A DNA stretch of 64,000 nt from Aggregatilineales bacterium. GTDB lineage: Bacteria; Chloroflexota; Anaerolineae; Aggregatilineales; Ch27. The notes below the pieces were generated by a model. That model did not search any database and was not told the DNA's origin. It was given only the letters and a program-made list of their open reading frames with translations. Location: assembly GCA_029976025.1 (NCBI GenBank), contig JARKNX010000021.1, positions 19,624 to 83,623 of the forward strand, in the 5' to 3' direction. The position numbers and the translations under genes were made by a program. Positions 99 to 40,366 of this stretch are shown piece by piece (the first letter of the stretch is position 1; each line of letters opens with the position of its first letter).

Positions 99-230
99 CG
101 CCGTTGTTCGCGGGGGCGAATTATCGCGACTGGATTGACGCCCGCCGCGCCGTGTGTTAATCTCGCCAATCAGACAGGTTTTACCCGATTGGCCGGCCTC
201 CTGTGCCGGCAGCAGTCCGGGAGCGCGACC

Positions 231-584
231 GTGCAAGACTTTTTGCCCATTGGGATTCTGATCCTGATCACTGTGCTGCTGGTGGTCTTTGTCTCGGTGA
301 TGTCCCGCCTGTTCGGGCCATTCCGCCCCACGCGGCGCAAGCAGATGCCCTATGAGAGCGGCGTGGACCCGATCGGCCCGGCCATCCGCCGCCTGCCGAT
401 CAAGTTCTACCTCACCGCCGTGCTGTTCATCCTGTTCGATATTGAGGTGGTATTCTTTTTGCCCTGGGCGGTTGTCATGCGCCGGATGGGCCTGTTCGGA
501 TTGTTCGAGATGCTGATCTTCACCGCCATTTTGCTGGCCGGGTACGTTTATGCCTGGCGCAAAGGAGCGCTGCAATGGGAGTAG
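231..584 (+). CDS. nuoA: NADH-quinone oxidoreductase subunit A
   Basis: [22 protein letters not shown] and KGALQWE motifs; start moved to GTG 231 after GGGAG RBS. Confidence 0.95.
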
Positions 585-1093
585 CCGCATCCGGGGCCGG
601 CAAGACCGGCGCGCCCGGGATGGTCACCACAACGCTGGAAGAGATGGTCAACTGGGCGCGCTCCGGCGCGATGTGGCCGCTCGGCTTCGGCCTGGCCTGC
701 TGTGCCATTGAGATGATGAGCACCCAGGCCAGCAGTTATGACCTCTCCCGCTTCGGGATGGAGCTGATGCGCCCCAGCCCGCGGCAAGCCGACATGATTA
801 TTGTAGCCGGGCGGGTGACCCGCAAGATGGCCCCCGTGCTGCGCCGGCTGTACGACCAGATGCCAGACCCCAAGTGGGTGCTGGCCATGGGCGACTGCGC
901 CAGTTGCGGCGGCGTCTACAACAACTACGCCGTCGTGCAGGGCGTGGATGAGATTGTGCCGGTGGATGTTTACGTCGCCGGCTGTCCCCCCCGCCCGGAG
1001 CAGCTTATCCATGGCATCATGACCCTGCATGAGAAGGTGCGGGGCGAGCAGTCGTTCAGCAAGTGGCGCGGCGATTTCATCCGGCTCGGGTAG
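575..1093 (+). CDS. nuoB: NADH-quinone oxidoreductase subunit B
   Basis: [28 protein letters not shown] (N2 ligands intact); overlaps the nuoA stop. Confidence 0.97.
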
Positions 1094-1133
1094 GCGGGGC
1101 CGCCCGAGGCTTTGAGCAAGGCGAGATAAACGT

Positions 1134-1649
1134 ATGCAGCCCAGTGACCCGGTAGCCGCTCTTCGTCAGGCATTTCCGAAAGCTGTTCAGGACGTGATCC
1201 AGTTCCGCGGGGAGACGACGATTATCATCGACCCGCCGCAGATCGCCCGCGTCGCCGCCCACCTGCGCGACGCCGAAGGGCTGAAGTACAACTTCCTTGT
1301 CAGCATCGTCGGCGTTGACTACCTGCCGGAAAGCCCGCGCTTCGCCGTGGACTACCACCTGCACTCCCTGATCTTCAACCAGGCGGTCCGGCTGAAGGTG
1401 CGCCTGGAGGAAGGCCAGTCCGTCCCCAGCGTGACGCCGCTCTGGTCGGGCGCCAACTGGCAGGAGCGCGAAGTCTACGACATGTTCGGCATCACCTTTG
1501 AAGGCCACCCGGACCTCCGCCGTATCCTGATGCCGGAAGGGTGGGACGGCTTCCCCCATCGCAAGGATTACCCGCTGGGCTATGAAGTCGTCCAGTTCTC
1601 GTTTAACTTCGACGAGATTAACCGCAACAAACCTTACGCCAAAGAATAG
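1134..1649 (+). CDS. nuoC: NADH-quinone oxidoreductase subunit C
   Basis: [34 protein letters not shown]. Confidence 0.96.
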
Positions 1650-1701
1650 CGGGCCGGCCTCCGCTGCGCCCGCAGCACGTGAGTACCAACGGGAGCGCAT
1701 C

Positions 1702-2952
1702 ATGACCATTTCCCCAGAGATGACCCGGTGGGAAGGGACGCTGGATGAGCTGAAGCACCTGGTATCGCCCCGGGCGCTGACCGGCGAGACTGTGCTGCTC
1801 AACATGGGGCCGCAGCACCCCAGCACGCACGGCGTGCTGCGCCTGCTGCTGGAGCTTGACGGCGAGCAGATCGTCACCGTCGTGCCCGATATTGGCTACC
1901 TGCACACCGGCATCGAGAAGAACATGGAGTCCAAGCGGTACGAGCAGGCCATCGTCATGACCGACCGCATGGACTACCTGGCTCCCTTCAGCAACAATCT
2001 GGTCTTCTGTCTGGCGATCGAAAAGCTGGCCGATATCGACGTGCCGGAGCGCGCCCAGATCATCCGCGTCCTGGTGGCGGAGTTGACGCGCCTCAACAGC
2101 CATCTGGTCTGGCTGGGCACGCACGCCCTGGACATCGGGGCCATGAGCGTCTTGCTTTACGCCTTCCGCGAGCGCGAGATGATCCTCGACATGTTCGAGA
2201 TGATCTCCGGCCAGCGGATGATGGGCACGTACTTCCGCCCCGGCGGCGTCTGGCGCGATATCACCTCGGAATTCCTCCCGGCGGTGGAAAAATTCCTGGA
2301 TTACCTGCCGGGCCGCATCGACGAATATGAGGCCCTGCTGACCAAAAACCCGCTGTGGGTTGACCGCACGCAGGGCATCGGCGTCATCACGCCGGAGGAT
2401 GCGATTGCGCTCGGCCTGGGCGGGGCGATCCTGCGAGCCAGCGGCGTCAACTTCGACGTGCGCAAGGCCGTCCCCTACAGCGGCTATGAGACCTACGACT
2501 TCGATGTCCCGCTCGGCCTGCACGGCGACACCTACGACCGCTACATCGTCCGTGTCGAGGAGATGCGCCAGAGCCTCCGCATCATCCGCCAGGCCGCCGA
2601 ACGCCTGACTAAAGTCAAAGGCCCATTCCGCACCGAGAATCGCAAGTTTGCGCCGCCGCCCCGCGCCGAGCTTGGCCAGAGCATGGAGGCCGTCATCCAC
2701 CACTTCAAGCTGTGGACGGAAGGCTTCAATGTGCCCCGGGGCGAGGTGCAGGTCATGGTTGAAAGCCCGCGCGGCGTCCTGGCCTGTTACCTGAGCGGGG
2801 ACGGCGGCAACAAGCCGCACCGGGTGCACTTCCGCACGCCATCGTTCGTCAATATTCAGGCTATCCCCTATGCCGCGCGCGGCCATCTGATTGCCGATCT
2901 GGTCGCCATTATCGGCACGTTTGATCCGGTCCTCGGAGACTGCGATCGTTAG
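1702..2952 (+). CDS. nuoD: NADH-quinone oxidoreductase subunit D
   Basis: NMGPQHPSTHGVLRL, GYLHTGIEK, C-terminal DPVLGDCDR; start ATG 1702 after GGGAG. Confidence 0.97.
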   Translation: MTISPEMTRWEGTLDELKHLVSPRALTGETVLLNMGPQHPSTHGVLRLLLELDGEQIVTVVPDIGYLHTGIEKNMESKRYEQAIVMTDRMDYLAPFSNNLVFCLAIEKLADIDVPERAQIIRVLVAELTRLNSHLVWLGTHALDIGAMSVLLYAFREREMILDMFEMISGQRMMGTYFRPGGVWRDITSEFLPAVEKFLDYLPGRIDEYEALLTKNPLWVDRTQGIGVITPEDAIALGLGGAILRASGVNFDVRKAVPYSGYETYDFDVPLGLHGDTYDRYIVRVEEMRQSLRIIRQAAERLTKVKGPFRTENRKFAPPPRAELGQSMEAVIHHFKLWTEGFNVPRGEVQVMVESPRGVLACYLSGDGGNKPHRVHFRTPSFVNIQAIPYAARGHLIADLVAIIGTFDPVLGDCDR

Positions 2953-8977: not shown

Positions 8978-10300
8978 ATGGCCGAGCACATTCTGCTGCG
9001 CGATCTGGATATCCCCGACATTCGCCGCTTTGAGGTTTACACCCGCCACGGGGGCTACGAAGCCCTGCGCAAGGTCGTGACCACGATGACGCCGGATGAC
9101 GTGATCAACGAAGTCAAGAAGTCCAACCTGCGCGGACGCGGCGGCGCGGGCTTCCCCACCGGCGTCAAATGGAGCTTCATCCCCAGGCAGGAGCCAATTA
9201 AATACGTCGTGGTCAACGCCGACGAATCCGAGCCGGGCACCTTCAAGGATCGCCAGATTCTGGAAGGCAACCCTCACCAGTTGATCGAAGGCGCCCTGAT
9301 CGCGGCTTACGCTATCCAGGCCACCGCCATTTACATTTACTGCCGCGGCGAGTTCTGGGACCTGACCCACGCCCTGGACCGGCATATCGAGGACGCCCGG
9401 CAGGCCGGCTTTGTCGGGGAGAACATCCTCGATTCCGGCTGGTCGTGCGAGGTTCACACCCACCTGGGGGCGGGAGCCTACATCTGCGGGGAGGAGTCGG
9501 CGCTGCTCAACAGCCTGCAGGGGCTGCTGGGCCAGCCGCGCGTCCGCCCGCCGTTCCCGGCGCAAAAGGGCGGCGGCCTTTACTATGAGGCGACCGTGGT
9601 CAACAACGTCGAGACGCTGACCAATGTGCCCTGGATCATCAACAACGGCGCCGACGCTTACCTCCAGATCGGCACGCCAGAAAGCCCCGGCCCCAAGATT
9701 TACTGCCTGAGCGGGCATATCAACCGGCCCGGCAACTACGAGCTGCCGCTGGGCATCACCTTCCGCGAGCTGATCTACGAGCACGGCGGCGGCATCCCCG
9801 ACGACCGCAAGCTCAAGGCCATCCTGCCGTCGGGCGCATCAGGGCCGGTCCTGCCGGCTACGGACGCCGTGCTGGACACACCGCTGACCTACGAAGCGGT
9901 AGCCAAGATCGGCTCCACGCTCGGCTCCGCTTCGATCATCCTGATCGATGAGACGGTCAACATGGCCTGGGCGGGGAGCAAGATGACGCAGTTCTTCGCC
10001 CATGAGAGCTGTGGCAAGTGCACCCCCTGCCGGGAGGGCACGTACTGGTCGCGCCGGCGCTACGACACGCTCCTGGCCGGCCGGGCGGCGGAGAAGGATA
10101 TCGACATCCTGTCCGACGTAGCCGGGCAGATGACCGGCCTGACGCTGTGCGCGCTGGGCGAGTTCGCCGTGAACCCCGTCGTCTGGACGATCAAGCACTT
10201 CCGCCAGGACTATCTGGAGTACATCCAGCAGGCCGCGGCGGAGGAGAAGCCCGCTGCGCGCGGCAAGGGCAAGGCCGCCAGAGACGCCGCCGCGAGGTAG
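8978..10300 (+). CDS. nuoF: NADH-quinone oxidoreductase subunit F
   Basis: GRGGAGFPTG, NADESEPGTFKDR, GAGAYICGEE, ESCGKCTPCREG...CALG. Confidence 0.97.
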   Translation: MAEHILLRDLDIPDIRRFEVYTRHGGYEALRKVVTTMTPDDVINEVKKSNLRGRGGAGFPTGVKWSFIPRQEPIKYVVVNADESEPGTFKDRQILEGNPHQLIEGALIAAYAIQATAIYIYCRGEFWDLTHALDRHIEDARQAGFVGENILDSGWSCEVHTHLGAGAYICGEESALLNSLQGLLGQPRVRPPFPAQKGGGLYYEATVVNNVETLTNVPWIINNGADAYLQIGTPESPGPKIYCLSGHINRPGNYELPLGITFRELIYEHGGGIPDDRKLKAILPSGASGPVLPATDAVLDTPLTYEAVAKIGSTLGSASIILIDETVNMAWAGSKMTQFFAHESCGKCTPCREGTYWSRRRYDTLLAGRAAEKDIDILSDVAGQMTGLTLCALGEFAVNPVVWTIKHFRQDYLEYIQQAAAEEKPAARGKGKAARDAAAR

Positions 10301-19639: not shown

Positions 19640-21520
19640 ATGACTCGCCGCGAGTCGCTCCGCCGGAACCTCCCGCCCCTGATTGTGGCGCTGCTCGTCC
19701 TGCTGGCCGCCTACCTGCCGACGCTTCAGACGACGATCAACGGGGCCGACCACTACTTCACCGCCGACGTGGGCGAGATTCAGATCGTACTCAACCGGTG
19801 GGGGACGCTGCATATCACCGGCTACCCCCTGTATACCGTGACGGGGAACGCGCTGGTCAGCCTGCTGCGGGCGCTGGGGGTCGGGCCGGCGCTCGCGCCC
19901 GCGCTCGTGTCGCTGCTGTGGGGGGAGATCGCCCTGGTCCTGCTGTACGTGCTCATGGTCGTCCTGACCGGCCGGCGCTGGACCGCCGCCGCCATCCTCG
20001 TCCTGTTCGGGCTGGTGCGCACAGTCTGGGTGCATCAGGTGATCGCCGAGGTCTACAGCTTCGGGCTGCTGCTGCTGGCTCTGCTGTTGCTGCTGGCTCT
20101 GTGGCCGGGGCCGGTCCGCGGACGGCTGTACTGGCTGGCTTTCATCGGCGGGGTCGGGGTCGGGCATCACCGCGGCATCGCCTTCGCCGCGCCGGCGCTG
20201 ATCTACGCCGTCTGGCCGGCGCTGCGCCACCGGCTGACCGGCGGCGGGCGTCCCCTGGCCGGTGCGCGGTTCCTGCTCAACTGCCTGCTGCTGGGCGCGG
20301 TGGGCGTCTTTGTCCCGTATGTCTACCTGTGGCTGCGGGCCAGGGCCGGAGCGGCCTGGGTCTACGGCCATCCGGATACGCTGGCCGGGCTGTGGGATCA
20401 GTTCATCGGCACCGAAGCGGGCCATTATATCGGGCTGCCGGCTACATGGGACGCCCTGCGGGCCAATGCTGAGATGGTTGGCTCCGTCCTGCTCACCGAC
20501 CTGACCCTCCCCGGCCTGATCGCCGGCGGGGCCGGGCTGATCGTCGCCCTGAGGAATCCGCGCCTGCGCCGGGCGGCGCTGACCCTGCTCCTGAGCGCGG
20601 CGGCCCCCGCTGCCTTTCATATCGTGCTGTACCGGGACGTGCTGTCCGCCCTGATCCTGCCGGTGGCCGTCTCAACCGCGTTTGGCTGGCTGTTCCTGGC
20701 GGACGCGCTGGCTGGCTGGGCGGCGCGGCGGAATTTCTCCGGCTGGCGGCGCGGGGTGCGGTGGGCCTGGGTTCCGCTCGCGGCGCTGCTGCTGGCCGCC
20801 CTGTTGATCCAGAACGGCCCGTTCATCCACGATCTCGTCACCGACCGGACGGCGCTGGCCTTCATCGATCTGGCCGAGGAAGCGCCGCCGGGTTCGTCGC
20901 TCATGATCGGCTGGGGCGTGTATTACTTCGCCGTCGCCTTCGCCCAGCAGGTGGACCCGGCGCTGGCGCCCCGGCTGGCGGAGGTGAATCTGGTGACACA
21001 TGAGGCCGGGTTTTACAATCTGGCGCGTGACGGTCGGCTGATCACGCCCTCCTACACCTTTTATAACCAGCCGCCGGCCTGGTGGGAGGTGCGGCTGGGC
21101 CAGCCGCCGGTCCTGGAGGCCGCCGCGCCGGGCCTGGTGCGGATCGGGCTGGAGCCGCGCCGCCCTGCTGCGCCGCCGGAGGGCTTCGGCCCGACTTCGC
21201 AGGCGGTGGCGTGCGCCGCCGATTCGGTGACGCTGGATGTCATCTGGGCCACGGCGGATGTCCCCGCCGAGGACCTCAGCGTATTTGTGCACGCCCTGGA
21301 CGCGGATGGCGCCGTGATCGGCCAGGCCGACCAGTCCGCTCCGGTTTACGGCTGGCGGCCGCTGACCGGCTGGACGGCGGGCGAGGCCGTGCGCGATATC
21401 TACCAGGTGCGGGTCGATCCGGCCCGCGTGGATCGCCTGCGCTACGGCTTTTATCGCGTCGCAGATGCCGGCTTCGAGAATGTGTACAGTTACGAGATCC
21501 CGGTCAACTGCGGCGCCTGA
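19640..21520 (+). CDS. DUF2723/TMEM260-like GT-C membrane glycosyltransferase
   Basis: DVGEIQ..GTLHITGYPLY, IAEVYS, GVGHH; multiple TM segments; C-terminal VFVH..QAD..W..GE domain. Confidence 0.8.
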   Translation: MTRRESLRRNLPPLIVALLVLLAAYLPTLQTTINGADHYFTADVGEIQIVLNRWGTLHITGYPLYTVTGNALVSLLRALGVGPALAPALVSLLWGEIALVLLYVLMVVLTGRRWTAAAILVLFGLVRTVWVHQVIAEVYSFGLLLLALLLLLALWPGPVRGRLYWLAFIGGVGVGHHRGIAFAAPALIYAVWPALRHRLTGGGRPLAGARFLLNCLLLGAVGVFVPYVYLWLRARAGAAWVYGHPDTLAGLWDQFIGTEAGHYIGLPATWDALRANAEMVGSVLLTDLTLPGLIAGGAGLIVALRNPRLRRAALTLLLSAAAPAAFHIVLYRDVLSALILPVAVSTAFGWLFLADALAGWAARRNFSGWRRGVRWAWVPLAALLLAALLIQNGPFIHDLVTDRTALAFIDLAEEAPPGSSLMIGWGVYYFAVAFAQQVDPALAPRLAEVNLVTHEAGFYNLARDGRLITPSYTFYNQPPAWWEVRLGQPPVLEAAAPGLVRIGLEPRRPAAPPEGFGPTSQAVACAADSVTLDVIWATADVPAEDLSVFVHALDADGAVIGQADQSAPVYGWRPLTGWTAGEAVRDIYQVRVDPARVDRLRYGFYRVADAGFENVYSYEIPVNCGA

Positions 21521-21686
21521 CCGGGTGCAGCGCCACCCGGCGCTGTTATCGAGCCACCAGCCAGAATCTCTTTGATCTTTTCTGGCGGCTCCCCGTTTCC
21601 CCGACTGCCTGTTTCTCCACCCCGATAGACCTGGCCCGCTGGCGCGGTATACTCCTCCCCGCTGCAGACGGGAGGATGGCGCGCGT

Positions 21687-24149
21687 ATGATCGAAAACTG
21701 GCTGGTCCCAACGCTGGCGCTGCTGCCGGTGCTGGCCGGGGTCCTGTGGGGAGTCGGGGTTCCCTGGGCGCTGGTTGTGCTGCCCCGGCGCGACTGGCGT
21801 TGCCCGGTCATGGTTGCCGCGGTCGGGCTGGCGCTGGGAGCGGTGTTACTCACGGCGGGTATGTTCGTGCTGGGCACGCTGGGCACGATCACCGCCGGCG
21901 GGACGGTCGCCCTCGGCGCGGGGATGGCGGCGGTCGGCGCGGCGCTGGCCTGGCGCCGCCGGAAGTCCGACCCCGGACCGGCCCCGGAGTCCGCGCCGCT
22001 GGCGGCCTGGGAGCGGCTGATTGTGGCCCTGCTGGTTATCGCCGTGCTGGCCCGCCTCCTGCGAACGGCTTACTGGCCGTTCGCCGCTTACGATCCGCTG
22101 TGGGTCTTCGGTTACAACGGGCGCGTCTTCACCCTGACCGGCCAGATTCCGCAGACGACCGGCTACTACCCCCAGCTTCTGGCCCTGCTGTACGCCTTCG
22201 GGCAGATGGTCTGGGGCGGCATCAATGACCACGCCGCCCGCGCCATCATCCCCCTGTTCGCGCTGGGGAGCATCCTGGCCGCTTACCTGCTGGGGGCGCG
22301 CCTCCTCTCCGAGGACCGGATCAGGGGCCGCCGGCTGGGGCTGCTGACCGCCTTCCTGTGGACGGCTTACCCCCTGCACGCTGACTGGTCTCGCTTCGGC
22401 GATCTGGAGATCCCGCTAACCTTCTTCTTCACGCTGGCCGCCCTGTTCTTCCTGCTGGCCTGGCGGGAGGAGTCGCGGCTCCGCTGGCGGTACGCGGCTG
22501 TCGCCGGGCTGATGCTCGGCGGGGCGATGTGGACCAAGCCGACGGCGGGGGCGCTGGTGTGGGGCATCCTGCTGCTCCTGCTGGTGGAGGCCGTCCGGCT
22601 GCGCCTGGACTGGCGGCGGCTGTGGCCGCGCGTCCGGATCGTGCTGCTGACCGGGCTGGCCGCCGCGCCCATCGGCGGCATGTGGTATCTGCGCAATCTG
22701 GCGCTGGGCCACCCGGCTGTGGTGTTCCCGGGGGCGTTCTGGCTGACCCAGGCCCAGCGCAGCGGACAGGAGCTGTTCTGGCCGCTGCTGGCGGCGAGTC
22801 TGCTGGCCGTCTGGCTGGCGGCGCAGCCGGACAGGCCGCGCCCGGACCTGCGGCTGCTGCTGCCGGGCCTGGCGCTGATGCTCCTCGGCGCGCTGCCTTC
22901 GGCGGGGCTGCCCGCGGCGGCGTTCCATCCGGTGGTGACCCGCCGCCTGACCGGCCCGGAAGTTGCCGCGATCCTGATCGGGCTGGCGCTGTACGCGGCA
23001 GCGGTTATCCGCTGGTGGCGGGCCGGGGGAAATGCGCAGATTGGCCGCGCTGCTCCCCGGGATGCGCTGGGAGTCGTCCTGCTCATCCTGCCTTACTGGT
23101 TGACCTGGTTCTGGTCCTATTCCTACCACCCCCGGCTGGCCTTTGCCATCGTGCCCCTGCAGATCCTCCTGATCGCCGCCCTGGCCCTCAAGGCTGCCGG
23201 AGCCGCTGGCGGCCGTCTGTGCCTTGTGCCGCGCGGGCGGCAGCGGCTGGCGGCGGCGCTGCTCGTCCTGCTGGCCCTGCCTGGCCTGTGGATCACTCTG
23301 GAGGACACCGTCCCCCACCTCATCGCCGGCGATCTGCCCGACGACGATGCCAAACAGCTCGCCTCCAATTACGCGCTGGCGCGCACCGTATTTCTGTTGC
23401 GGAGGGAGATCGACGCCAGCGACCGCCCGGTGCGCATCGTCGCGCCGGGGGACCTGCGACTGCCCTTCTTCTTCCCCGATCTGCCCGTTACCACCGATCC
23501 GGTCACCGATCTGGCCGTCCTCGATGAGGGCGTGACGCACTTCATTGACGGCTTCGAGGCCGGCCTGGCCTACGACGCAATCGGGCAGGGCGTGAATCCG
23601 GCCCGCGGCGCGATGGGCCTGTCCTGGCTGGCTGAGCCGCTGGCCCACGAATGGGACGGCGACTTTTACTACGATGTCTACCGGATTGACACGTCCCGCC
23701 GCCACCAGCCGCAGACCTTCAACGGCTATCTGGAGGATCGGGTCCTGTACCCCTTCGCTGAGGTGCTCGGCTACAGCATGACCGGCCTCGACTTCTGGCC
23801 GGGCCGGCGCATCATCCTCAATATTGTGTTTCATGTGCTGGAAGAAACCGACCGGGATTACACGATCTACCTGCATGTGATGGAAGGCGACCGGCTTGTG
23901 GCGACCTGGGATCATGTGCCCGGCAACGCCCGCTACCCGACCTCGCTCTGGCAGGCGGGAGAGTACATCGAAGACCGGGCCTGGGTGGAGCTTGGCGACG
24001 ATGTGTCGCCCGGCACCTACCGCGTGGAGATGGGTTTTTACGACCTGGCGACCGGAGAGCGCGTGCCCGCCCGCGTCGGAAGTCGCACTGCCGACGGCTT
24101 CTTGCTGGTGCCCGTCATTAACAAACTGGTCAGCCCGCCGGCCCAGTAA
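21687..24149 (+). CDS. ArnT/GT39-like GT-C glycosyltransferase
   Basis: YDP, YYPQL, GDLEIP, WTKPT, WYLRN; C-terminal YTIYLH..DHVP..YPTSLWQAGE domain. Confidence 0.8.
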   Translation: MIENWLVPTLALLPVLAGVLWGVGVPWALVVLPRRDWRCPVMVAAVGLALGAVLLTAGMFVLGTLGTITAGGTVALGAGMAAVGAALAWRRRKSDPGPAPESAPLAAWERLIVALLVIAVLARLLRTAYWPFAAYDPLWVFGYNGRVFTLTGQIPQTTGYYPQLLALLYAFGQMVWGGINDHAARAIIPLFALGSILAAYLLGARLLSEDRIRGRRLGLLTAFLWTAYPLHADWSRFGDLEIPLTFFFTLAALFFLLAWREESRLRWRYAAVAGLMLGGAMWTKPTAGALVWGILLLLLVEAVRLRLDWRRLWPRVRIVLLTGLAAAPIGGMWYLRNLALGHPAVVFPGAFWLTQAQRSGQELFWPLLAASLLAVWLAAQPDRPRPDLRLLLPGLALMLLGALPSAGLPAAAFHPVVTRRLTGPEVAAILIGLALYAAAVIRWWRAGGNAQIGRAAPRDALGVVLLILPYWLTWFWSYSYHPRLAFAIVPLQILLIAALALKAAGAAGGRLCLVPRGRQRLAAALLVLLALPGLWITLEDTVPHLIAGDLPDDDAKQLASNYALARTVFLLRREIDASDRPVRIVAPGDLRLPFFFPDLPVTTDPVTDLAVLDEGVTHFIDGFEAGLAYDAIGQGVNPARGAMGLSWLAEPLAHEWDGDFYYDVYRIDTSRRHQPQTFNGYLEDRVLYPFAEVLGYSMTGLDFWPGRRIILNIVFHVLEETDRDYTIYLHVMEGDRLVATWDHVPGNARYPTSLWQAGEYIEDRAWVELGDDVSPGTYRVEMGFYDLATGERVPARVGSRTADGFLLVPVINKLVSPPAQ

Positions 24150-24257
24150 AAATTACCCGAATAAATAAGATGCGCTTCCTGTTCAATCTGCCTATAATCA
24201 TCAGTCAGATGGACGTTGTTTCTGCGCCTGCGAATAAGCGGGATATCCGGGATAGCC

Positions 24258-26576
24258 GTGTCTAACCTTTACGCGCTCCTCCTGCTGATCAGCGCGGCCG
24301 GGCTGGTGTACGTGGCCTGGCAAGTCTCCCGCCAGTTGCCTCAGCCCGGGCAACGGTTCTTCATCCTGTTTCTGCTGGCGACAGCCTTCTGGATGTTCGG
24401 GTACAGTCTCCAGCTTATCGTGCCCGATCAGGAATTCACCTATTTCTGGGCGCGGGCCAAGTGGCTGGGCCGGCTTTATGTGACGCCGCTGTGGCTGATC
24501 TTCGTCATCATCTACACCGGCCCCGACAATGGCTGGCGGCGTCCCCCGTCAAAGTTGCTCCTGGCGGCGCTGCTCGGCATCCCCATCCTCATTATGATCC
24601 TGATCTGGACTACGGGCGCCCACGGCTTCTTCTGGACCCAGCGCCAGCTTCAGGCTGAGTCGGGCTTTTTGCGGTTCATGATCGGCGAAGGGCCGCTGGT
24701 AGTCCCTTATATCCTTTACGCGACTGCGCTCCGGCTGGTGACGCTGGTTATTCTCGTCCACACCCTGCGCGATATCCATCTGCAACGCCGCTACCAGAAT
24801 ACTGTGCTGGCGCTGGGGACGGTCTTCACCCTGCTGATCAGCGCGATGGATATCTCAAACGTGCTTATACCGCAGATAAGCATCCAACTGGCCCCGGCGG
24901 CCTCCGGAATGGCGGCTTTCCTCTTTTACTGGGTGATATATCCCGGCCGCCTGCTGGACATAACCCCGTTCACGCGCAGCGAAATTGTCGAGAGCATGAG
25001 CGACGGCGTGATCATCTTCGACGCGGCGAACCGCATCATCGACTTCAACCCGGCGGCGGAACGGCTGACCGGCCTGGTGGCCGCTGCTGTGGTTGGCCAG
25101 CCCGGCGAGACGGCGCTGAGCGCCCTGCCAGAAGCCGCTGTGCCTTACACGGGCGCCCGCCGCGCCCATGCCGAAGTCCCTTTCCAGCGCGGCAATCAGC
25201 GCCTGGCCCTCGATCTCACCCTGATCCCGCTGACCGACCGCTTTGGGAGTACTTCCGGGCGGATGGTCATGATCCGCGACGTGACCGGCGAGAAGCAGTC
25301 GGCGGCGGTCCTGCGGCAGGCACTGGTGCGCTCCCATGTCCTGTATCAGGCCAGCACGTCGCTGATTGCCTTTGAGAATCTCTCGGCCCTGCTGCGTAAC
25401 GTGGTCTACGCTGTCGTGGATGCTTTATCGGCCTACTGGGTGTGTGTGATCGGCTTCGGCCCCGGCGAGGAGCAGGTCATTACCCACATGGTCAACGGCG
25501 GCCCGGGAGCCGGCGAGGTCTCCCTGCCGACGGATGAGATGCTGCTTTCCGGCCTGGTTGGCCAGGCGCTGGAAACGATGGAGCCGGTCTTTTCGCCGCG
25601 CACTATGCTCCGTGATCCACGACAGGGGGCGGTGACAGCCAAATGGCGCGAGGATAACGGCCTCGGCCCGATCATCGTCGTCCCCCTGCGTTACCGGGAC
25701 CGGACCTTCGGGGCGATGCTGGCGGCGAACCGCCTCGACGACGCCGACTTCAGCCACCAGGATGTCGAGCTTATGATTGTCCTGGCCAGCCAGGCCTCTG
25801 TCGCCATCGGCAACGCCCGCCTGCTGGAGACGGTGCAGCAGTATGCCGCCGAGCTGGAGGAGCGCAACCGCGAGCTGGATGCCTACAGCCATACGGTCGC
25901 CCATGATCTGAAGAAGCCGCTGACGTATATGCTCGGCTACGGCGATCTGCTCAACGAGGACGAGCGGCTGCCGGCTGATGCGCGCCTCTACGCCGCCCAG
26001 ATCAGCCAGGCTGCTCACAAGATGAACAATATGGTCGAGAACCTGCTGCTCCTGGCCCGGCTCCGCCAATCGGAGACCGTGCTGGAGCCGGTCCCGCTGG
26101 GACCTGTGGTGCAGGCGGCGGTGGAGCGCTTCGCCGACGATCTGGCTGAGCGGGGAGTCCGGCTGGAAATTGAGCCGGAGATGCCGTCCGTGCTTGGCAA
26201 TGCCGGCTGGCTGGAGGAGGTCTACGCCAACCTGCTCAGCAATGCTATCAAGTACATCGGGCGGGATAACCCGGATCCCTGGGTGGCGATTCGCGCCCGC
26301 CAGATCGGGGAGGAAGTGTACTGTGAAGTGTGCGATAATGGGCGGGGGATTGCGCCGGAAGACCAGAAGAAGCTGTTCAAGCTGTTCTCGCGCTTTCATG
26401 TCGATCAGGCGGCGGGATATGGCCTGGGGCTTTCCATCGTCATGCGCATCATCACCAAGCTGAACGGCCTGATCGGTGTGGAGAGCGCGCCGGGGCAGGG
26501 CAGTACCTTCTGGTTCACGCTGCCGGCGGCGCCTCCTCCGGCGGAGCCAGCCGCTAATTCCGGGCTGGCGGAATAA
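24258..26576 (+). CDS. HisKA_7TM-PAS-GAF sensor histidine kinase
   Basis: About 7 TM segments; IIDFNPAAE PAS; GAF; VAHDLKKPL H-box; NLLSNAIKY, GYGLGL; start uncertain (24216 or 24258). Confidence 0.9.
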   Translation: MSNLYALLLLISAAGLVYVAWQVSRQLPQPGQRFFILFLLATAFWMFGYSLQLIVPDQEFTYFWARAKWLGRLYVTPLWLIFVIIYTGPDNGWRRPPSKLLLAALLGIPILIMILIWTTGAHGFFWTQRQLQAESGFLRFMIGEGPLVVPYILYATALRLVTLVILVHTLRDIHLQRRYQNTVLALGTVFTLLISAMDISNVLIPQISIQLAPAASGMAAFLFYWVIYPGRLLDITPFTRSEIVESMSDGVIIFDAANRIIDFNPAAERLTGLVAAAVVGQPGETALSALPEAAVPYTGARRAHAEVPFQRGNQRLALDLTLIPLTDRFGSTSGRMVMIRDVTGEKQSAAVLRQALVRSHVLYQASTSLIAFENLSALLRNVVYAVVDALSAYWVCVIGFGPGEEQVITHMVNGGPGAGEVSLPTDEMLLSGLVGQALETMEPVFSPRTMLRDPRQGAVTAKWREDNGLGPIIVVPLRYRDRTFGAMLAANRLDDADFSHQDVELMIVLASQASVAIGNARLLETVQQYAAELEERNRELDAYSHTVAHDLKKPLTYMLGYGDLLNEDERLPADARLYAAQISQAAHKMNNMVENLLLLARLRQSETVLEPVPLGPVVQAAVERFADDLAERGVRLEIEPEMPSVLGNAGWLEEVYANLLSNAIKYIGRDNPDPWVAIRARQIGEEVYCEVCDNGRGIAPEDQKKLFKLFSRFHVDQAAGYGLGLSIVMRIITKLNGLIGVESAPGQGSTFWFTLPAAPPPAEPAANSGLAE

Positions 26577-31017: not shown

Positions 31018-31512
31018 GTGAACCTGATACGCGGATTTGTGACAACTTTCAAATACCTGTTCCGCGAGCCGGTAACCTACCAGTATCCGGAGCAGGAACG
31101 CCCCTTCCGGGAGCGTTATAAGGGCCGTCACGCCCTCAAGCGTTACGACAACGGCCTGGAGAAGTGCATTGGCTGCGCGCTGTGCGCGGCGGCCTGCCCG
31201 GCGGACGCTATCTGGGTAGAAGCGGCGGAAAATACGGACGAAGTACGCTACAGCCCCGGCGAGCGTTACGCCAAGACATACGAGATCAACATGCTGCGCT
31301 GCATCTTTTGTGGCTATTGTGAGGACGCCTGCCCGACTGAAGCGATTGTGCTGGAGCATGAGCACCGGCTGAGCTTCACCGACCGCCGGGACGCTATCTA
31401 CACCAAGGCCGACCTGCTCGACCCCCCGTCGGACGGGGTTCCCGATACGCCGCAGCGTGTCCCTCCGGGGAGCTTTGACCGCTCCATCCCGGATATGCAA
31501 AACCCGCTTTAG
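31018..31512 (+). CDS. nuoI: NADH-quinone oxidoreductase subunit I
   Basis: CIGCALCAAACP and CIFCGYCEDACP. Confidence 0.97.
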   Translation: MNLIRGFVTTFKYLFREPVTYQYPEQERPFRERYKGRHALKRYDNGLEKCIGCALCAAACPADAIWVEAAENTDEVRYSPGERYAKTYEINMLRCIFCGYCEDACPTEAIVLEHEHRLSFTDRRDAIYTKADLLDPPSDGVPDTPQRVPPGSFDRSIPDMQNPL

Positions 31513-31558: not shown

Positions 31559-31659
31559 GCCTGCCCGAAACGGCACATGTCCCCTGATATTGCGCCGGGG
31601 ACTCTCTATGCTGTTCGGGCTTTCGCTTAGTGACAAGAAGGAGGTTTCATAAACCCGAG

Positions 31660-32769
31660 ATGCGCGTTGCGGTTCTGGCGAACCTTAAGCAGAACGCTCC
31701 GACCTGGGAAGGCATGTCGCCGGACCAGTGGGATGATCTTGACAGTCCTAAAACGGTCAACGCCCTCATCGCCGCTATTAAGTCGCGCGGGCACCAGGCT
31801 GAATTCCTGGAAGCCAACATCCGTCCGCCGCACAACCTGATCCAGCGCCTGGAGGAGTACAACCCTGATATCTGCTTCAATATCGCCGAGAGCCACTTTG
31901 GCGACGGGCGAGAAGCGCAGGTCCCGGCGATACTGGAAATGCTGGAGATTCCTTACACTGGCAGTAAGGTGTTAACTCTGGCGTTGGCCCTGGATAAGCC
32001 AATGACCAAGCGCATCCTGTGGTATCACGGGCTGCCCACGCCTGAGTTTCAGGTGTTCGATCGGCCCGACGAAGCAATTGAGGAAGATCTGCTGGACGAG
32101 GCCCAAAAAGAGCTGCGCTTTCCGTTGTTCGTCAAACCCAGCCGCGAAGGCACCAGCATGGGCGTCAGCTCAGAGAGCATCGTCTATACTGTTGATCAGC
32201 TTTATACTCAGGTGAGGCGCCAGCTTAAGCTGTACAAGCAGCCGATTCTGGTGGAACACTTCATCGAGGGGCGCGAACTGACGGTCGGCATGGTCGGCAA
32301 TATCGCTGAGCCGGTCGCCCGTCGTATCAGCGATCACGCCATGCGTACCGCCCTCCCTGACGGGCTGAACTTCTTCCCGATCATGGAGATCAATACCGCC
32401 GCCTACCGGGAATCGGAGGCCGGCCTTTACACCAACCGCATGAAGGTGGAGCTGGCTGAGGATTACTACTACCTGTGCCCGGCGCCTGTTGGAGAGGACC
32501 TGGCCTTTGAGCTTAAGGCGCTGGCCGGAGCGGTGTTCCGCGTGATCGGCTGCAAAGATGTCGCCCGCGTGGACTTCCGGCTGGATCAGGCGAACAACGA
32601 TAAGCCGTATATTCTGGAAGTGAATACGCTGCCCGGTCTGAACCCGGGGTACAGCGATCTGTGCATTCAGGCTCACGCCGCCGGCTGGACTTACGAGGAC
32701 CTGGTCAATACCATCCTCGACCTGGCTGTAGAGCGCCAGGCCCGCCCCGGCGTATACGCGCAGGGATAG
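31660..32769 (+). CDS. D-Ala-D-Ala ligase-like ATP-grasp protein
   Basis: IPYTGS, ALDK, FVKPSREGTSMG, EHFIEGRE, ARVDFR, LEVNTLPGL. Confidence 0.88.
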   Translation: MRVAVLANLKQNAPTWEGMSPDQWDDLDSPKTVNALIAAIKSRGHQAEFLEANIRPPHNLIQRLEEYNPDICFNIAESHFGDGREAQVPAILEMLEIPYTGSKVLTLALALDKPMTKRILWYHGLPTPEFQVFDRPDEAIEEDLLDEAQKELRFPLFVKPSREGTSMGVSSESIVYTVDQLYTQVRRQLKLYKQPILVEHFIEGRELTVGMVGNIAEPVARRISDHAMRTALPDGLNFFPIMEINTAAYRESEAGLYTNRMKVELAEDYYYLCPAPVGEDLAFELKALAGAVFRVIGCKDVARVDFRLDQANNDKPYILEVNTLPGLNPGYSDLCIQAHAAGWTYEDLVNTILDLAVERQARPGVYAQG

Positions 32770-33090: not shown

Positions 33091-33108
33091 TTGCGCTAAA
33101 CTGCACAA
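33091..33108. promoter_or_regulatory. Palindromic operator (Rex-like) overlapping the nuoJ -10
   Basis: TTGCGC-TAAACT-GCACAA; TGGACT-17-TAAACT promoter. Confidence 0.35.
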
Positions 33109-33138
33109 GCGCAACTATTTCTGGACAGGACAACGCCT

Positions 33139-34422
33139 ATGACGGAAGTGTTTGTTTTTTTGATCGTCGGCGCGATCGCCATCCTGTCAGCAGCCTTTAT
33201 GCTGATCAGTGAGAACGCGGTCCACAGCGCGCTCTTCCTGGTCCTGAACTTCTTTTGTGTCGCCTTCTTCTTTCTGACCCTCAGCGCGCCGTTCATCGCC
33301 CTGATTCAGATCACGGTTTATGCTGGCGCGATCATGGTGCTGTTTCTGTTCGTGATCATGCTGCTGGGGGCGGAACGGGTTGTGCCCGGCGCCGGGCCGT
33401 ACCACTGGCTGCCCCGGGCCGCGATCGCCCTGGCTCTGGTCTTCCTGCTGACGATCGGCCTCGCCGTGGCTGGCGGAAATGTGAACTTCAATAATCCGCC
33501 GCCGCCGCAGCCGATGCTGCGCCTGATCCACGCCGCCGACGGCCCGCCGTTTGATGTTTACCTCAACAACCAGCTCTTTGAAGAGAACGTGGTCTACCGC
33601 CAGGCCACCGGCTACCGGTCTGTGCCCGCCGGCGAATATGCGATCGCCATCTATCCGGCCGGGGCGGACCCGGCCACGTCGGCCCCGGCTATTCTGGGCG
33701 ACTTCACGCTGACCAATAACTCGGCGATCAGCGTGGCCATGCTGGGGGCCGGCAGCACGTACACCCTGAGCCGCCTGGTGGATAATCCGTTCTCAACCGG
33801 GGCGGATCAGGCCCGCCTGACCGTGCTCAATGGCCTGCCGGACGCCGGCCCGATCGATCTGGTGGACCCCGGCCTGCCTTCCACGACGGATGACGACGAT
33901 GTCCTGATCGCCAGCGCTTCGTTCGCCGAGCCGATCGGGACGCTGCTTGTCGAAGCCGCCGAAGCGCGCACGCTGACTATCCGGCCTTCCGGCAGCCCGG
34001 GGGCCAGCCCGCTGGTGACCTATCACGATCTGGCGCTGGCGCGCGACACCAACAACATCCTGATACCGTCGCCGGAACGGCTTTCGACCGGCGGGATGCG
34101 CGTCGTCCCCCTGGTGATCGCCACCGCCGCCCTGCCGGAGTTCGGCAGCCCGCAGGCGGTCGGCGCGGAGCTGTATACCGCCTATCTGCTGCCGTTTGAG
34201 CTGGTGTCCGTGCTGCTGCTGACGGCTATGGTCGGCGCTGTGGTGCTGACCCGCCGCGATCTGATTGCCGAACATCGCCCGCGCCGCCAGGTCGTGCGCA
34301 GGCCGCTGGTCGGGCCGCAGGCGGCCTCTGCCCTGGCGACGCAGATCGGGGACCAGGAGTCTGTCGAGCAGATTCTCTCCGAGCCGGCTCCGCCCGCTGA
34401 GCCGACGCCGGAGGGCACGTAG
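33139..34422 (+). CDS. nuoJ: NADH-quinone oxidoreductase subunit J with DUF4397-like insertion
   Basis: [48 protein letters not shown]; 427 aa. Confidence 0.93.
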
Positions 34423-34430
34423 GAGGGCCA

Positions 34431-34751
34431 ATGGAGCCGATCCCTGTTTTTGTGCCGACTGAGCTGTATCTGGCGCTGGCCGTCGTCCTCTTTGTGATGG
34501 GGGCGCTCGGCGTAGTTATCCGGCGCAGCGCCATTCTGATCTTTATGTCGATTGAGCTGATGCTCAACGCTGGCAATCTGGCTATTGTCGCCTTTGCCCG
34601 CCACTGGGGACAGGTCGGCGGGCAGGTCCTGGTGTTCTTTGTGATGACGGTGGCGGCGGCAGAAGTGGCTGTCGGTCTGGCCCTGATTGTGACGATCTTC
34701 CGCTCCAGGCGCAGCATCAACGTTGACGAGCTGCACCAGATGGAAGGCTAG
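34431..34751 (+). CDS. nuoK: NADH-quinone oxidoreductase subunit K
   Basis: [21 protein letters not shown]. Confidence 0.97.
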
Positions 34752-38989: not shown

Positions 38990-40366
38990 ATGCGCAGCTT
39001 GTCGCGGACTGTCGTTCGCTTCTGGCGGGTTGTCGCGCTGCTGATCGTTGTGGCTGCGGTTCTGCCGCTGGCGGAAGGTGCGCTCAGGGAGACTCCGTCC
39101 GTCTCGGCTCAGGGGGAAGATGGGGTAGTTGTCCGCACTACTGACAACGTGCGGCTGCGGGCTGCGCCCAGCACGGCCTCCCGCATCTACGATGTGGCCC
39201 GGCGCGGCACACAGCTCACGGCGACGGCAATCAGCTCCAACTACCGCTGGATTCGGGTGACCTTCCACGGGCAGGGCGGCTGGATGGCCCGCCGCTATCT
39301 GACCGTGGTCTCCGGGGATGTTGCCGCGCTGCCGGTGTCCGATGAATACGTCCCGCCGGCTGTGGTCTCGGCCAGCCAGTACATGCCCGTCAACGCCGTC
39401 GTCGTCGAGGCCCTGCAGGATGTCCATATGCGCACCGAGCCGACCGCCGAGCCGGAAGGGATCGAGGGCCTGCTCAACCCGAACGAGAACGTGATCACCG
39501 TCATGCCCGCCGGGGCGCAGGGATCGGCGCGGGCGATCACGGTGGATGGGCTGTGGGTGTTTGTGCAGTGGAGCGGCTACCGGGGCTGGATCAAGGGCCA
39601 GTACCTGAATGTGGTGGCTGGCTCGCTGGAAAGCCTTGTGCCGCCCAACGTGGAATTTGACGCCGACGGCATTTACTTCGTCGCTGACCGCGCCTATGTC
39701 CTGCCCGGCGGTTGCACAATGGTCCGCTGGGCGGTGGAAGGATCGGGGTCGGTCAATTACAAGGCCCGCCGGGTCGCCAGCCAGGGTCAGCGCGAGGAGT
39801 GCCCCATCCAGACCCAGCAGTACAAGCTGATCGTCGTCCGGCCCGGCAATCAGATCATCGAGCGCACAATCACGATCGCCGTTGTGACGGCGAATGTCAC
39901 TTTCACCGCCACGCCAGATACAGTGGGCCGCGGCGGGTGCACGACCCTGGCCTGGAACACGACCGCCGTCTCGCGCGTCTTCCTCGGCGAAAACGAGGTG
40001 TCTGTGAACGGCTCGCAGCAGGTCTGCCCGCAGGAGACGACGAATTACGCCCTGCGCGCCTATACCGAAGACGGCAACCTCATCGAACAGTCGGTGACGG
40101 TCACCGTGATCGAAGTGACGCCCACGCCGTCGCAGTTCGTCACCATCAACTTCTACGCCGACCGGCTGCTGATCAACCAGGGCGAATGCGTGAATGTCTT
40201 CTGGAACGTGAGCGGGGCGCTGCAAGTGTTCTTCCAGGGGGCGCAGGTATCGCCGCTTGGCTCGCAGCAGTCATGCCCGACGACGACGACCACGTACGCG
40301 CTGCGGGTGTTCACGGTCGATAACCGGATCATCGAGCAGACGGTCGTGGTCTCCGTGAATCCGTAG
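38990..40366 (+). CDS. Exported protein with two SH3b-like and three Cys-containing Ig-like repeats
   Basis: Signal peptide; NVRLRAAPST..WIRV..GW twice; three F.AD...G.C...W...CP..T..Y.L repeats; TATAAT at 38915. Confidence 0.8.
   Translation: MRSLSRTVVRFWRVVALLIVVAAVLPLAEGALRETPSVSAQGEDGVVVRTTDNVRLRAAPSTASRIYDVARRGTQLTATAISSNYRWIRVTFHGQGGWMARRYLTVVSGDVAALPVSDEYVPPAVVSASQYMPVNAVVVEALQDVHMRTEPTAEPEGIEGLLNPNENVITVMPAGAQGSARAITVDGLWVFVQWSGYRGWIKGQYLNVVAGSLESLVPPNVEFDADGIYFVADRAYVLPGGCTMVRWAVEGSGSVNYKARRVASQGQREECPIQTQQYKLIVVRPGNQIIERTITIAVVTANVTFTATPDTVGRGGCTTLAWNTTAVSRVFLGENEVSVNGSQQVCPQETTNYALRAYTEDGNLIEQSVTVTVIEVTPTPSQFVTINFYADRLLINQGECVNVFWNVSGALQVFFQGAQVSPLGSQQSCPTTTTTYALRVFTVDNRIIEQTVVVSVNP

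Follow-up and report, generated by a model that had tools for sequence, protein, structure and literature searches.

In an Aggregatilineales bacterium (Chloroflexota, Anaerolineae), the NuoJ subunit of respiratory complex I carries a pair of DUF4397 beta-sandwich domains in the loop between its fourth and fifth transmembrane (TM) helices, and this insert is maintained by purifying selection through most of one Anaerolineae order. The gene lies in a stretch of 64,000 nucleotides (contig JARKNX010000021.1 of assembly GCA_029976025.1), hereafter the window, and its open reading frame (ORF) of 427 amino acids (aa) encodes the NuoJ (ND6) subunit of a 14-gene NADH:quinone oxidoreductase. The TM4-TM5 insert consists of about 205 folded residues and linkers. 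The fused protein belongs to both the NuoJ and the DUF4397 families, and is a member of neither AlgF nor the extracellular domain (ECD) of the PepT transporters, its nearest structural relatives.

Both family assignments exceed the curated Pfam cut-offs. PF00499 (Oxidored_q3) matches the ORF with 130.5 bits (cut-off 33.2) in two separate stretches, and PF14344 (DUF4397) matches between them, at aa 126-241 (E 1.7e-22, 80.7 bits, cut-off 30.6). An original prediction, made from the letters of the window, had described a NuoJ longer than typical with a DUF4397 stretch at 33490-34135 (aa 118-332). The length is borne out by the 19 matching solved NuoJ/ND6/NdhG chains, which measure 162-252 aa, and the predicted stretch, scanned by itself, matches DUF4397 in Pfam (E 3.4e-23); its coordinates fall inside the extra segment, which is slightly wider, running from about aa 115 to 337 in place of a loop of a few tens of residues. 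The solved chains align solely to residues 2-114 and 329-385 of the query (in 6hum_G, residues 7-112 and 129-176 pair with query residues 2-105 and 335-382); they skip its middle, and about 225 extra residues therefore stand exactly between TM4 and TM5. All five TM helices of the NuoJ type are present in the AlphaFold2 model, in the order TM1-4, loop, TM5, in agreement with hydropathy, and the N-terminus (MTEV...) is common to the homologues in an alignment of 44 of them. The protein thus shares with canonical NuoJ/Nqo10/ND6/NdhG (3rko_J, 4he8_J, 8e9g_J, 6hum_G), whose solved chains match it at E 5e-19 to 1e-12, the five-TM core, the conserved TM3 segment and the position between nuoI and nuoK, the G-to-N gene order being conserved in 22 related loci. 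It differs in the TM4-TM5 loop, which counts about 17-40 residues in the canonical subunits and here holds about 225 residues with two beta-sandwiches.

The two beta-rich units announced in the original prediction were recovered both by profile comparison and by modelling. Unit 2 is not called separately by Pfam, and its membership of the same family comes from its relation to unit 1: hhalign of the two sub-alignments of the 44 homologues (aa 122-224 against aa 225-328) gave a probability of 94.8% and E 5.2e-8 over 76 columns, and AlphaFold2 models both as beta-sandwiches. Computed from an alignment of 14 inserts from different genomes, the model of the insert reached a predicted local distance difference test score (pLDDT) of 91.9 and a predicted template modelling score (pTM) of 0.88, with fifteen strands in two blocks and zero helices. 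The full-length model (pLDDT 83.0, pTM 0.71) places most of the beta domains (126-330) above pLDDT 90, leaves the tail poorly defined, and matches E. coli NuoJ with a Foldseek probability of 1.00 and 33-36% identity. The conserved residues of the insert (R128, D139, Y141, G165, G175, G203, R226 and N231) repeat between both units, and no catalytic motif or signature was found among the conserved positions; in the return segment towards TM5, P338 is invariant and G336 nearly so.

Foldseek ranked the ECD of PepT1 or PepT2 first to eighth among the structural neighbours of the insert (E 8.2e-8 to 2.0e-6, probability 1.00). In sequence, the profile of the 14 inserts ranked AlgF (6czt_A, E 0.06) and PepT1 (E 0.086 and 0.35) highest in the Protein Data Bank, all below significance; a single-sequence phmmer search of the same database with the insert returned chance-level matches alone (a Rieske subunit at E 0.09), and the Pfam AlgF family (PF11182) gave zero matches to the insert at E <= 1. 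The authors of an AlgF study list the same set of structural neighbours for AlgF itself (bioRxiv 10.1101/2023.07.25.550544). The description of the insert as DUF4397/AlgF-like therefore has to be divided: the insert is AlgF-like at the level of the fold, as its Foldseek neighbours indicate, while by sequence it is DUF4397 and not of the AlgF family.

The fusion is neither a chance association nor an artefact. All 120 homologues listed carry PF00499 together with PF14344 (1409 at E <= 1e-3 among 8000 scored), and PF14344 is matched by 14/14 inserts from different genomes. A search of 1.84 billion cluster representatives yielded 113 matches at E <= 1e-30, mostly full-length proteins of 390-495 aa, the remainder being fragments and a few giant multi-DUF4397 proteins; in the ESM Atlas, which lacks the protein of the window itself, a cluster of 462 members is automatically named for both domains. 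Metagenomes of wastewater and activated sludge from two studies contain near-identical DNA. Zero-mismatch contigs from run X2, of a different study, cover positions 33100-33375, 33346-33714, 33719-34032 and 34018-34450; they bridge both junctions of the insert, which disposes of the assembly artefact that the original prediction had named as a risk, and leave four insert bases uncovered. Contigs from RNA libraries (X10, 34078-34269; X11, 33828-34021) show zero differences, such libraries being able to contain DNA. Runs X2 and X3 also hold contigs with short, mismatched TM3 and TM5 flanks that join 33363 to 34183 through 198 letters where the window has 819. This 819-base skip was rejected as a variant of the window gene and, given its short, mismatched flanks, is read as plain nuoJ of other co-occurring organisms.

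Among the genomes searched, the fused protein occurs in one order. With the whole protein as query and a threshold of E <= 1e-40, it was found in 253/382 species genomes of the window's order, distributed over five families (f1, 9/9 plus the window's own genome; f84, 38/42; f85, 19/19; f2, 166/261; f88, 20/21), with no match at that threshold in f86 (0/4), f87 (0/1) and f89 (0/24). Two f2 genera under the threshold are still fused, with a more diverged insert (G672, 462 aa; G533, 466 aa; PF00499 and PF14344 in both). Plain NuoJ frames of 241, 191 and 195 aa were found in a single genome from f86, f87 and f89, respectively. In the rest of the class, 0/385 genomes match at E <= 1e-36, a threshold that diverged inserts could escape. 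In a 400-genome sample of the phylum, which includes six unpublished genomes (G227, G038, G272, G145, G344 and G173) that enter into no other result, the best match besides the window's own genome (E 2.2e-27) covers the N-terminal core only, and diverged inserts could again escape. Outside the order, DUF4397 was absent from the NuoJ locus of five long frames (G386, G290, G083, G243 and G257). A search for related loci in genome contigs gave 325 pattern matches, of which none was confirmed. Searching the order with the insert alone gave no usable counts of fused genes, as such a search also matches large multi-DUF4397 paralogues and leaves diverged inserts below threshold. Homologues are named "Anaerolineae bacterium", "Chloroflexi bacterium" or Aggregatilinea lenta (P0093, NCBI name), and the order is probably the Aggregatilineales/SBR1031 group, described as facultative aerobes (PMC8067394).

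The order nuoG-H-I-J-K-L-M-N is kept in 13 fused, 3 plain in-order and 6 out-of-order loci, a few of them cut by contig ends. A FastTree phylogeny (LG+gamma) of 23 loci was computed from the subunits NuoG, H, I, K, L, M and N, NuoJ excluded, over 3108 concatenated columns. In this tree, a branch with a Shimodaira-Hasegawa-like support of 1.000 separates the 14/14 insert-bearing loci from the rest. When the root is placed on the out-of-order loci, the insert-bearing loci form a monophyletic group, with the plain f86 and f87 loci as sister and f89 further out, and no insert-free secondary form was seen inside this clade among the 14 loci examined. The simplest reading of this tree would be a single gain of the insert. 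Its source is suggested by structure: the insert of P0093 (residues 119-330 of the Atlas model) superposes on free-standing Chloroflexota DUF4397 proteins of 278 and 265 aa with template modelling scores of 0.88 and 0.85 by query, over 205 and 202 residues. These are separate secreted proteins, but they share both the family and the two-domain arrangement, and are therefore a plausible type of donor; in the Atlas cluster of the 265-aa protein, 12% of the members bear an LPXTG anchor. The insert was probably captured with its two domains already joined, from a Chloroflexota DUF4397 protein that was secreted or attached to the wall. Among proteins of 118-377 aa, no free-standing close sequence relative was found except P0147, apparently a fragment of a fused gene.

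The insert measures 220-244 aa in 44/44 homologues, and its mean pairwise identity among them is 0.35 in unit 1 and 0.30 in unit 2, against 0.65 in TM1-4. For the closest pair (G445-G446, dS 0.36), Nei-Gojobori ratios of nonsynonymous to synonymous substitution rates (dN/dS) are 0.091 in the insert and 0.089 in the TM core; in four more distant pairs, where dS is near saturation, they reach 0.32-0.52 in the insert versus 0.14-0.21 in the core. The ratio for the insert is thus below 1 in 5/5 pairs (0.09-0.52). Together with the identities, these values indicate a module kept by selection whose evolution outpaces that of the core, the usual pattern in exposed domains.

Four indirect lines of evidence agree in placing the module on the outer side of the membrane, as had been proposed. 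The insert is acidic (10 K+R vs 23 D+E), a property found in 44/44 aligned homologues, while the TM3-4 loop and the stretch after TM5 are basic. The C-terminus of the Mycobacterium smegmatis NuoJ reaches the peripheral arm (PMC10068793), and residues 329-385 of the query align with residues 137-193 of that chain; since this C-terminus is cytoplasmic, the loop ahead of TM5 should lie on the opposite side. Moreover, the three other DUF4397 proteins of the same genome (1070, 694 and 537 aa) have signal-peptide-like or lipoprotein-like starts. Finally, the relatives of the insert are located in the periplasm (AlgF) or on the extracellular or luminal side (the PepT and HGSNAT domains). The probable place of the module is therefore the outer (P) face of the membrane arm, from which it would project close to the NuoH/A/J/K region. 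On contigs C150 (48217-53655) and C187 of genome G000, three large secreted proteins contain three to six DUF4397 repeats each, and the 1070-aa protein adds a Pro/Thr linker and repeated SH3-like modules, so that DUF4397 and SH3 modules are combined in one surface protein.

Neither of the closest structural relatives is an equivalent of the whole system. As in the ECD of PepT1 and PepT2 (SLC15A1/A2; 5a9h, 5a9i, 7nqk, 7s8u), tandem Ig-like folds, here predicted, interrupt a loop of a polytopic membrane protein, a loop that in NuoJ probably faces outward too, but identity is only 8-11% and the PepT host is an animal peptide transporter of the POT group in the major facilitator superfamily, not NuoJ. 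The PepT ECD binds trypsin (PMC4597091) through a di-aspartate motif, a role with no obvious counterpart in the NuoJ insert, where such binding would be biologically implausible. We attribute this resemblance to convergence in architecture, or to a very distant common origin of the domain, and not to orthology. AlgF of Pseudomonas (6czt, 6d10), a periplasmic adaptor of alginate acetylation reported to bridge AlgJ and AlgX (bioRxiv 10.1101/2023.07.25.550544), likewise has two 8-stranded beta-sandwich domains, but is soluble, free-standing and encoded in an alginate operon with algI, algJ and algX, whereas the NuoJ insert is an internal segment in a nuo operon. The complex I of M. smegmatis (8e9g) offers a parallel at the level of the enzyme, its NuoJ and NuoH having gained clade-specific additions with structural roles (PMC10068793); these are C-terminal tails on the cytoplasmic side, in contrast with the folded module described here, in a loop that probably faces outward. 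The insert may work like AlgF or the PepT ECD without belonging to either.

We accordingly favour, with no more than middling confidence and counting the architecture in, a module for docking or scaffolding, placed at the NuoH/A/J/K region on the P side. It would be a built-in, non-catalytic binding domain that docks a protein or a component of the cell envelope onto complex I from outside, proton pumping being left to the unchanged TM core. This reading is drawn from the lack of a catalytic signature and from the nearest structural relatives, the PepT1/2 ECD and AlgF, being protein-binding adaptors. Several points weigh against it. The module seems to have no known partner or ligand, and its conserved residues look fold-determining and mark no binding site. 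The orientation is based on charge bias and homology, not on experiment. The NCBIfam equivalog models of NuoJ all match without any reaching its full-length cut-off (best 118.5 vs 192), as expected since the NuoJ core is split, and the tree is limited to 23 loci and one method. The fast divergence of the insert would also fit a loosely constrained brace.

Such a structural brace, with no external partner, would pack outside NuoH/A/J/K/N and stabilise the membrane arm or help to assemble it. In mitochondrial complex I, supernumerary subunits do such bracing on the intermembrane-space face. Lineage-specific extensions of NuoJ and NuoH secure the complex of M. smegmatis (PMC10068793), the present clade elaborates NuoH (extra C-terminal TM-like helices) and NuoL (787 aa), and a conserved length combined with fast sequence change suits a constraint on shape. 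The closest structural relatives are nevertheless adaptors for other proteins, and the extended NuoH does not strictly follow the insert in its distribution, f84 loci being without the second extra helix; we regard the brace as possible, though on the unlikely side. A role as an outside-in regulator, in which binding of an external ligand or partner would bias the conformation and activity of complex I via TM4 and TM5 beside TM3, finds a footing in the conformation of NuoJ TM3, which marks the open and closed states (PMC10068793, PMC8357420), and in the predicted anchoring of the insert at both ends to helices flanking the TM3 region. The reasoning is purely geometric, and the flexible-looking Pro-rich linkers would pass force poorly, which makes this role improbable. 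We consider still more improbable that the domain is a functionless passenger tolerated in a permissive loop: the canonical loop is short and variable and the insert diverges quickly, but it is retained in 253/382 genomes of five families at a steady 220-244 aa, with dN/dS of 0.09-0.52, below 1 in every pair, and no insert-free secondary form among the 14 clade loci. A chimeric assembly or mis-joined gene call, which a 225-contig draft genome with 3.68% contamination might suggest, is already refuted by the contigs 33346-33714 and 34018-34450 bridging both junctions without mismatch in another study and by hundreds of independent genomes with the same architecture in the same operon position.

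Table 1. Features of the nuoJ gene and of the nuo locus in the window
Feature	Position	Strand	Basis or remarks
nuoJ coding sequence	33139..34422	+	427 aa and stop; ORF list, PF00499 match
TM1-TM4 of NuoJ core, aa 1-114	33139..33480	+	AlphaFold2 helices 2-23, 27-47, 53-80, 91-111; hydropathy; solved-chain alignment
Pro-rich linker behind TM4, aa 115-125	33481..33513	+	sequence; no secondary structure in AlphaFold2 model
Beta-sandwich unit 1, DUF4397, aa 126-224	33514..33810	+	PF14344; AlphaFold2 strands 126-215, pLDDT > 90
Beta-sandwich unit 2, divergent DUF4397-like, aa 225-330	33811..34128	+	
Return segment, short helix ahead of TM5, aa 331-349, conserved FGSP motif	34129..34185	+	AlphaFold2 helix 338-347
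TM5 of NuoJ core, aa 350-378	34186..34272	+	AlphaFold2 helix 350-378; aligns with C-terminal stretch of solved NuoJ/NdhG
C-terminal tail, basic then acidic, probably cytoplasmic, aa 379-427	34273..34419	+	sequence after TM5; NuoJ C-terminus in M. smegmatis
nuoA-D	135-2952		followed by HEAT-repeat protein, unknown 564-aa ORF, B12/radical-SAM protein
nuoF	8978-10300		
TIR-NB-ARC-TPR protein, 1292 aa	10307-14188	minus	
Two PMT-like glycosyltransferases	19640-24149		
Seven-TM histidine kinase	24216-26576		followed by nuoG onward
NuoH, 470 aa	29551-30963	+	extra C-terminal TM-like helices aa 362-380, 402-420; poly-Ala/acidic tail
nuoI	31018-31512		
D-Ala-D-Ala-ligase (Ddl)-like ATP-grasp gene between nuoI and nuoJ	31630-32769	+	PF07478 E 8e-35; under all NCBIfam Ddl cut-offs
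nuoK	34431-34751		
NuoL, 787 aa	34853-37216	+	acidic/Pro-rich insert ~aa 217-288; His/acidic insert ~aa 430-480
Probable secreted 458-aa protein P0266 between nuoM and nuoN	~38990-40366	+	hydrophobic N-terminus, SH3_3 domain(s), three Cys-pair repeats

The nuo genes of a single complex I are interspersed with unrelated genes over positions 135-42151 of the window (Table 1). A scan for the subunit genes other than nuoE recovered nuoA-D, F, G, H, I, K, L, M and N beside nuoJ, and an Rfam scan of the window gave zero matches. At the nuoI-nuoJ position, the Ddl-like gene is restricted to the window's own family (G446, G443, G445 and G448); an SH3-type gene follows nuoM in G443, G447 and G448, not in G445, and only 7 close homologues of P0266 were found. 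The presence of Ddl-like and SH3_3/Ig-like secreted protein genes inside the operon gives circumstantial hints of a connection to the cell wall, for the window's own family only. As an explanation of the order-wide insert, these two genes were rejected, being confined to that family. The second extra helix of NuoH recurs in f1, f2 and f85, not in f84, with none or one extra helix in plain-NuoJ lineages and outgroups, and NuoL measures 720-877 aa throughout the order versus 593-692 aa in six outgroup loci. Genome G000 has a second nuo-like cluster (nuoA-H-J...J-K-L-M) on contigs C50 (1-2066) and C66 (8581-12579), split within nuoJ so that the loop is unreadable, and a Mrp/Mbh-like cluster on C12 (25192-27854). 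A second, plain NuoJ paralogue (frames of 193-222 aa) was seen in the relatives G672, G533 and G473.

No description of a fused NuoJ/DUF4397 protein was found in the literature on DUF4397, Chloroflexi complex I, complex I structure and Aggregatilineales genomics (supplements outside); automatic annotation already labels the NuoJ + DUF4397 architecture. To our knowledge, the complex I of bacteria passes for a minimal enzyme whose outer face bears essentially no folded structure. In the present case an entire order of Chloroflexota, abundant in the environment, has a well-folded module of two domains there, on a subunit central to the coupling region. This amounts to a natural experiment on a TM4-TM5 loop with a large cargo, which the loop may either put up with or make use of. 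The module is also a striking parallel to the PepT1/2 extracellular domain and offers a handle for attributing a function to DUF4397, and the sharing of the architecture by a relative which, judging by its name, is cultivated (P0093, Aggregatilinea lenta) makes cryo-electron microscopy and genetics conceivable. We consider it improbable, as a more far-reaching view, that the module is a working interface of the respiratory chain with the envelope or a partner complex. In this view it may tether complex I to the wall or to another extracytoplasmic protein and, being clamped between TM4 and TM5 beside the TM3 switch, let outside events tune the activity of the enzyme; if true, no other complex I of bacteria would have preceded it in having an outward domain for sensing or docking.
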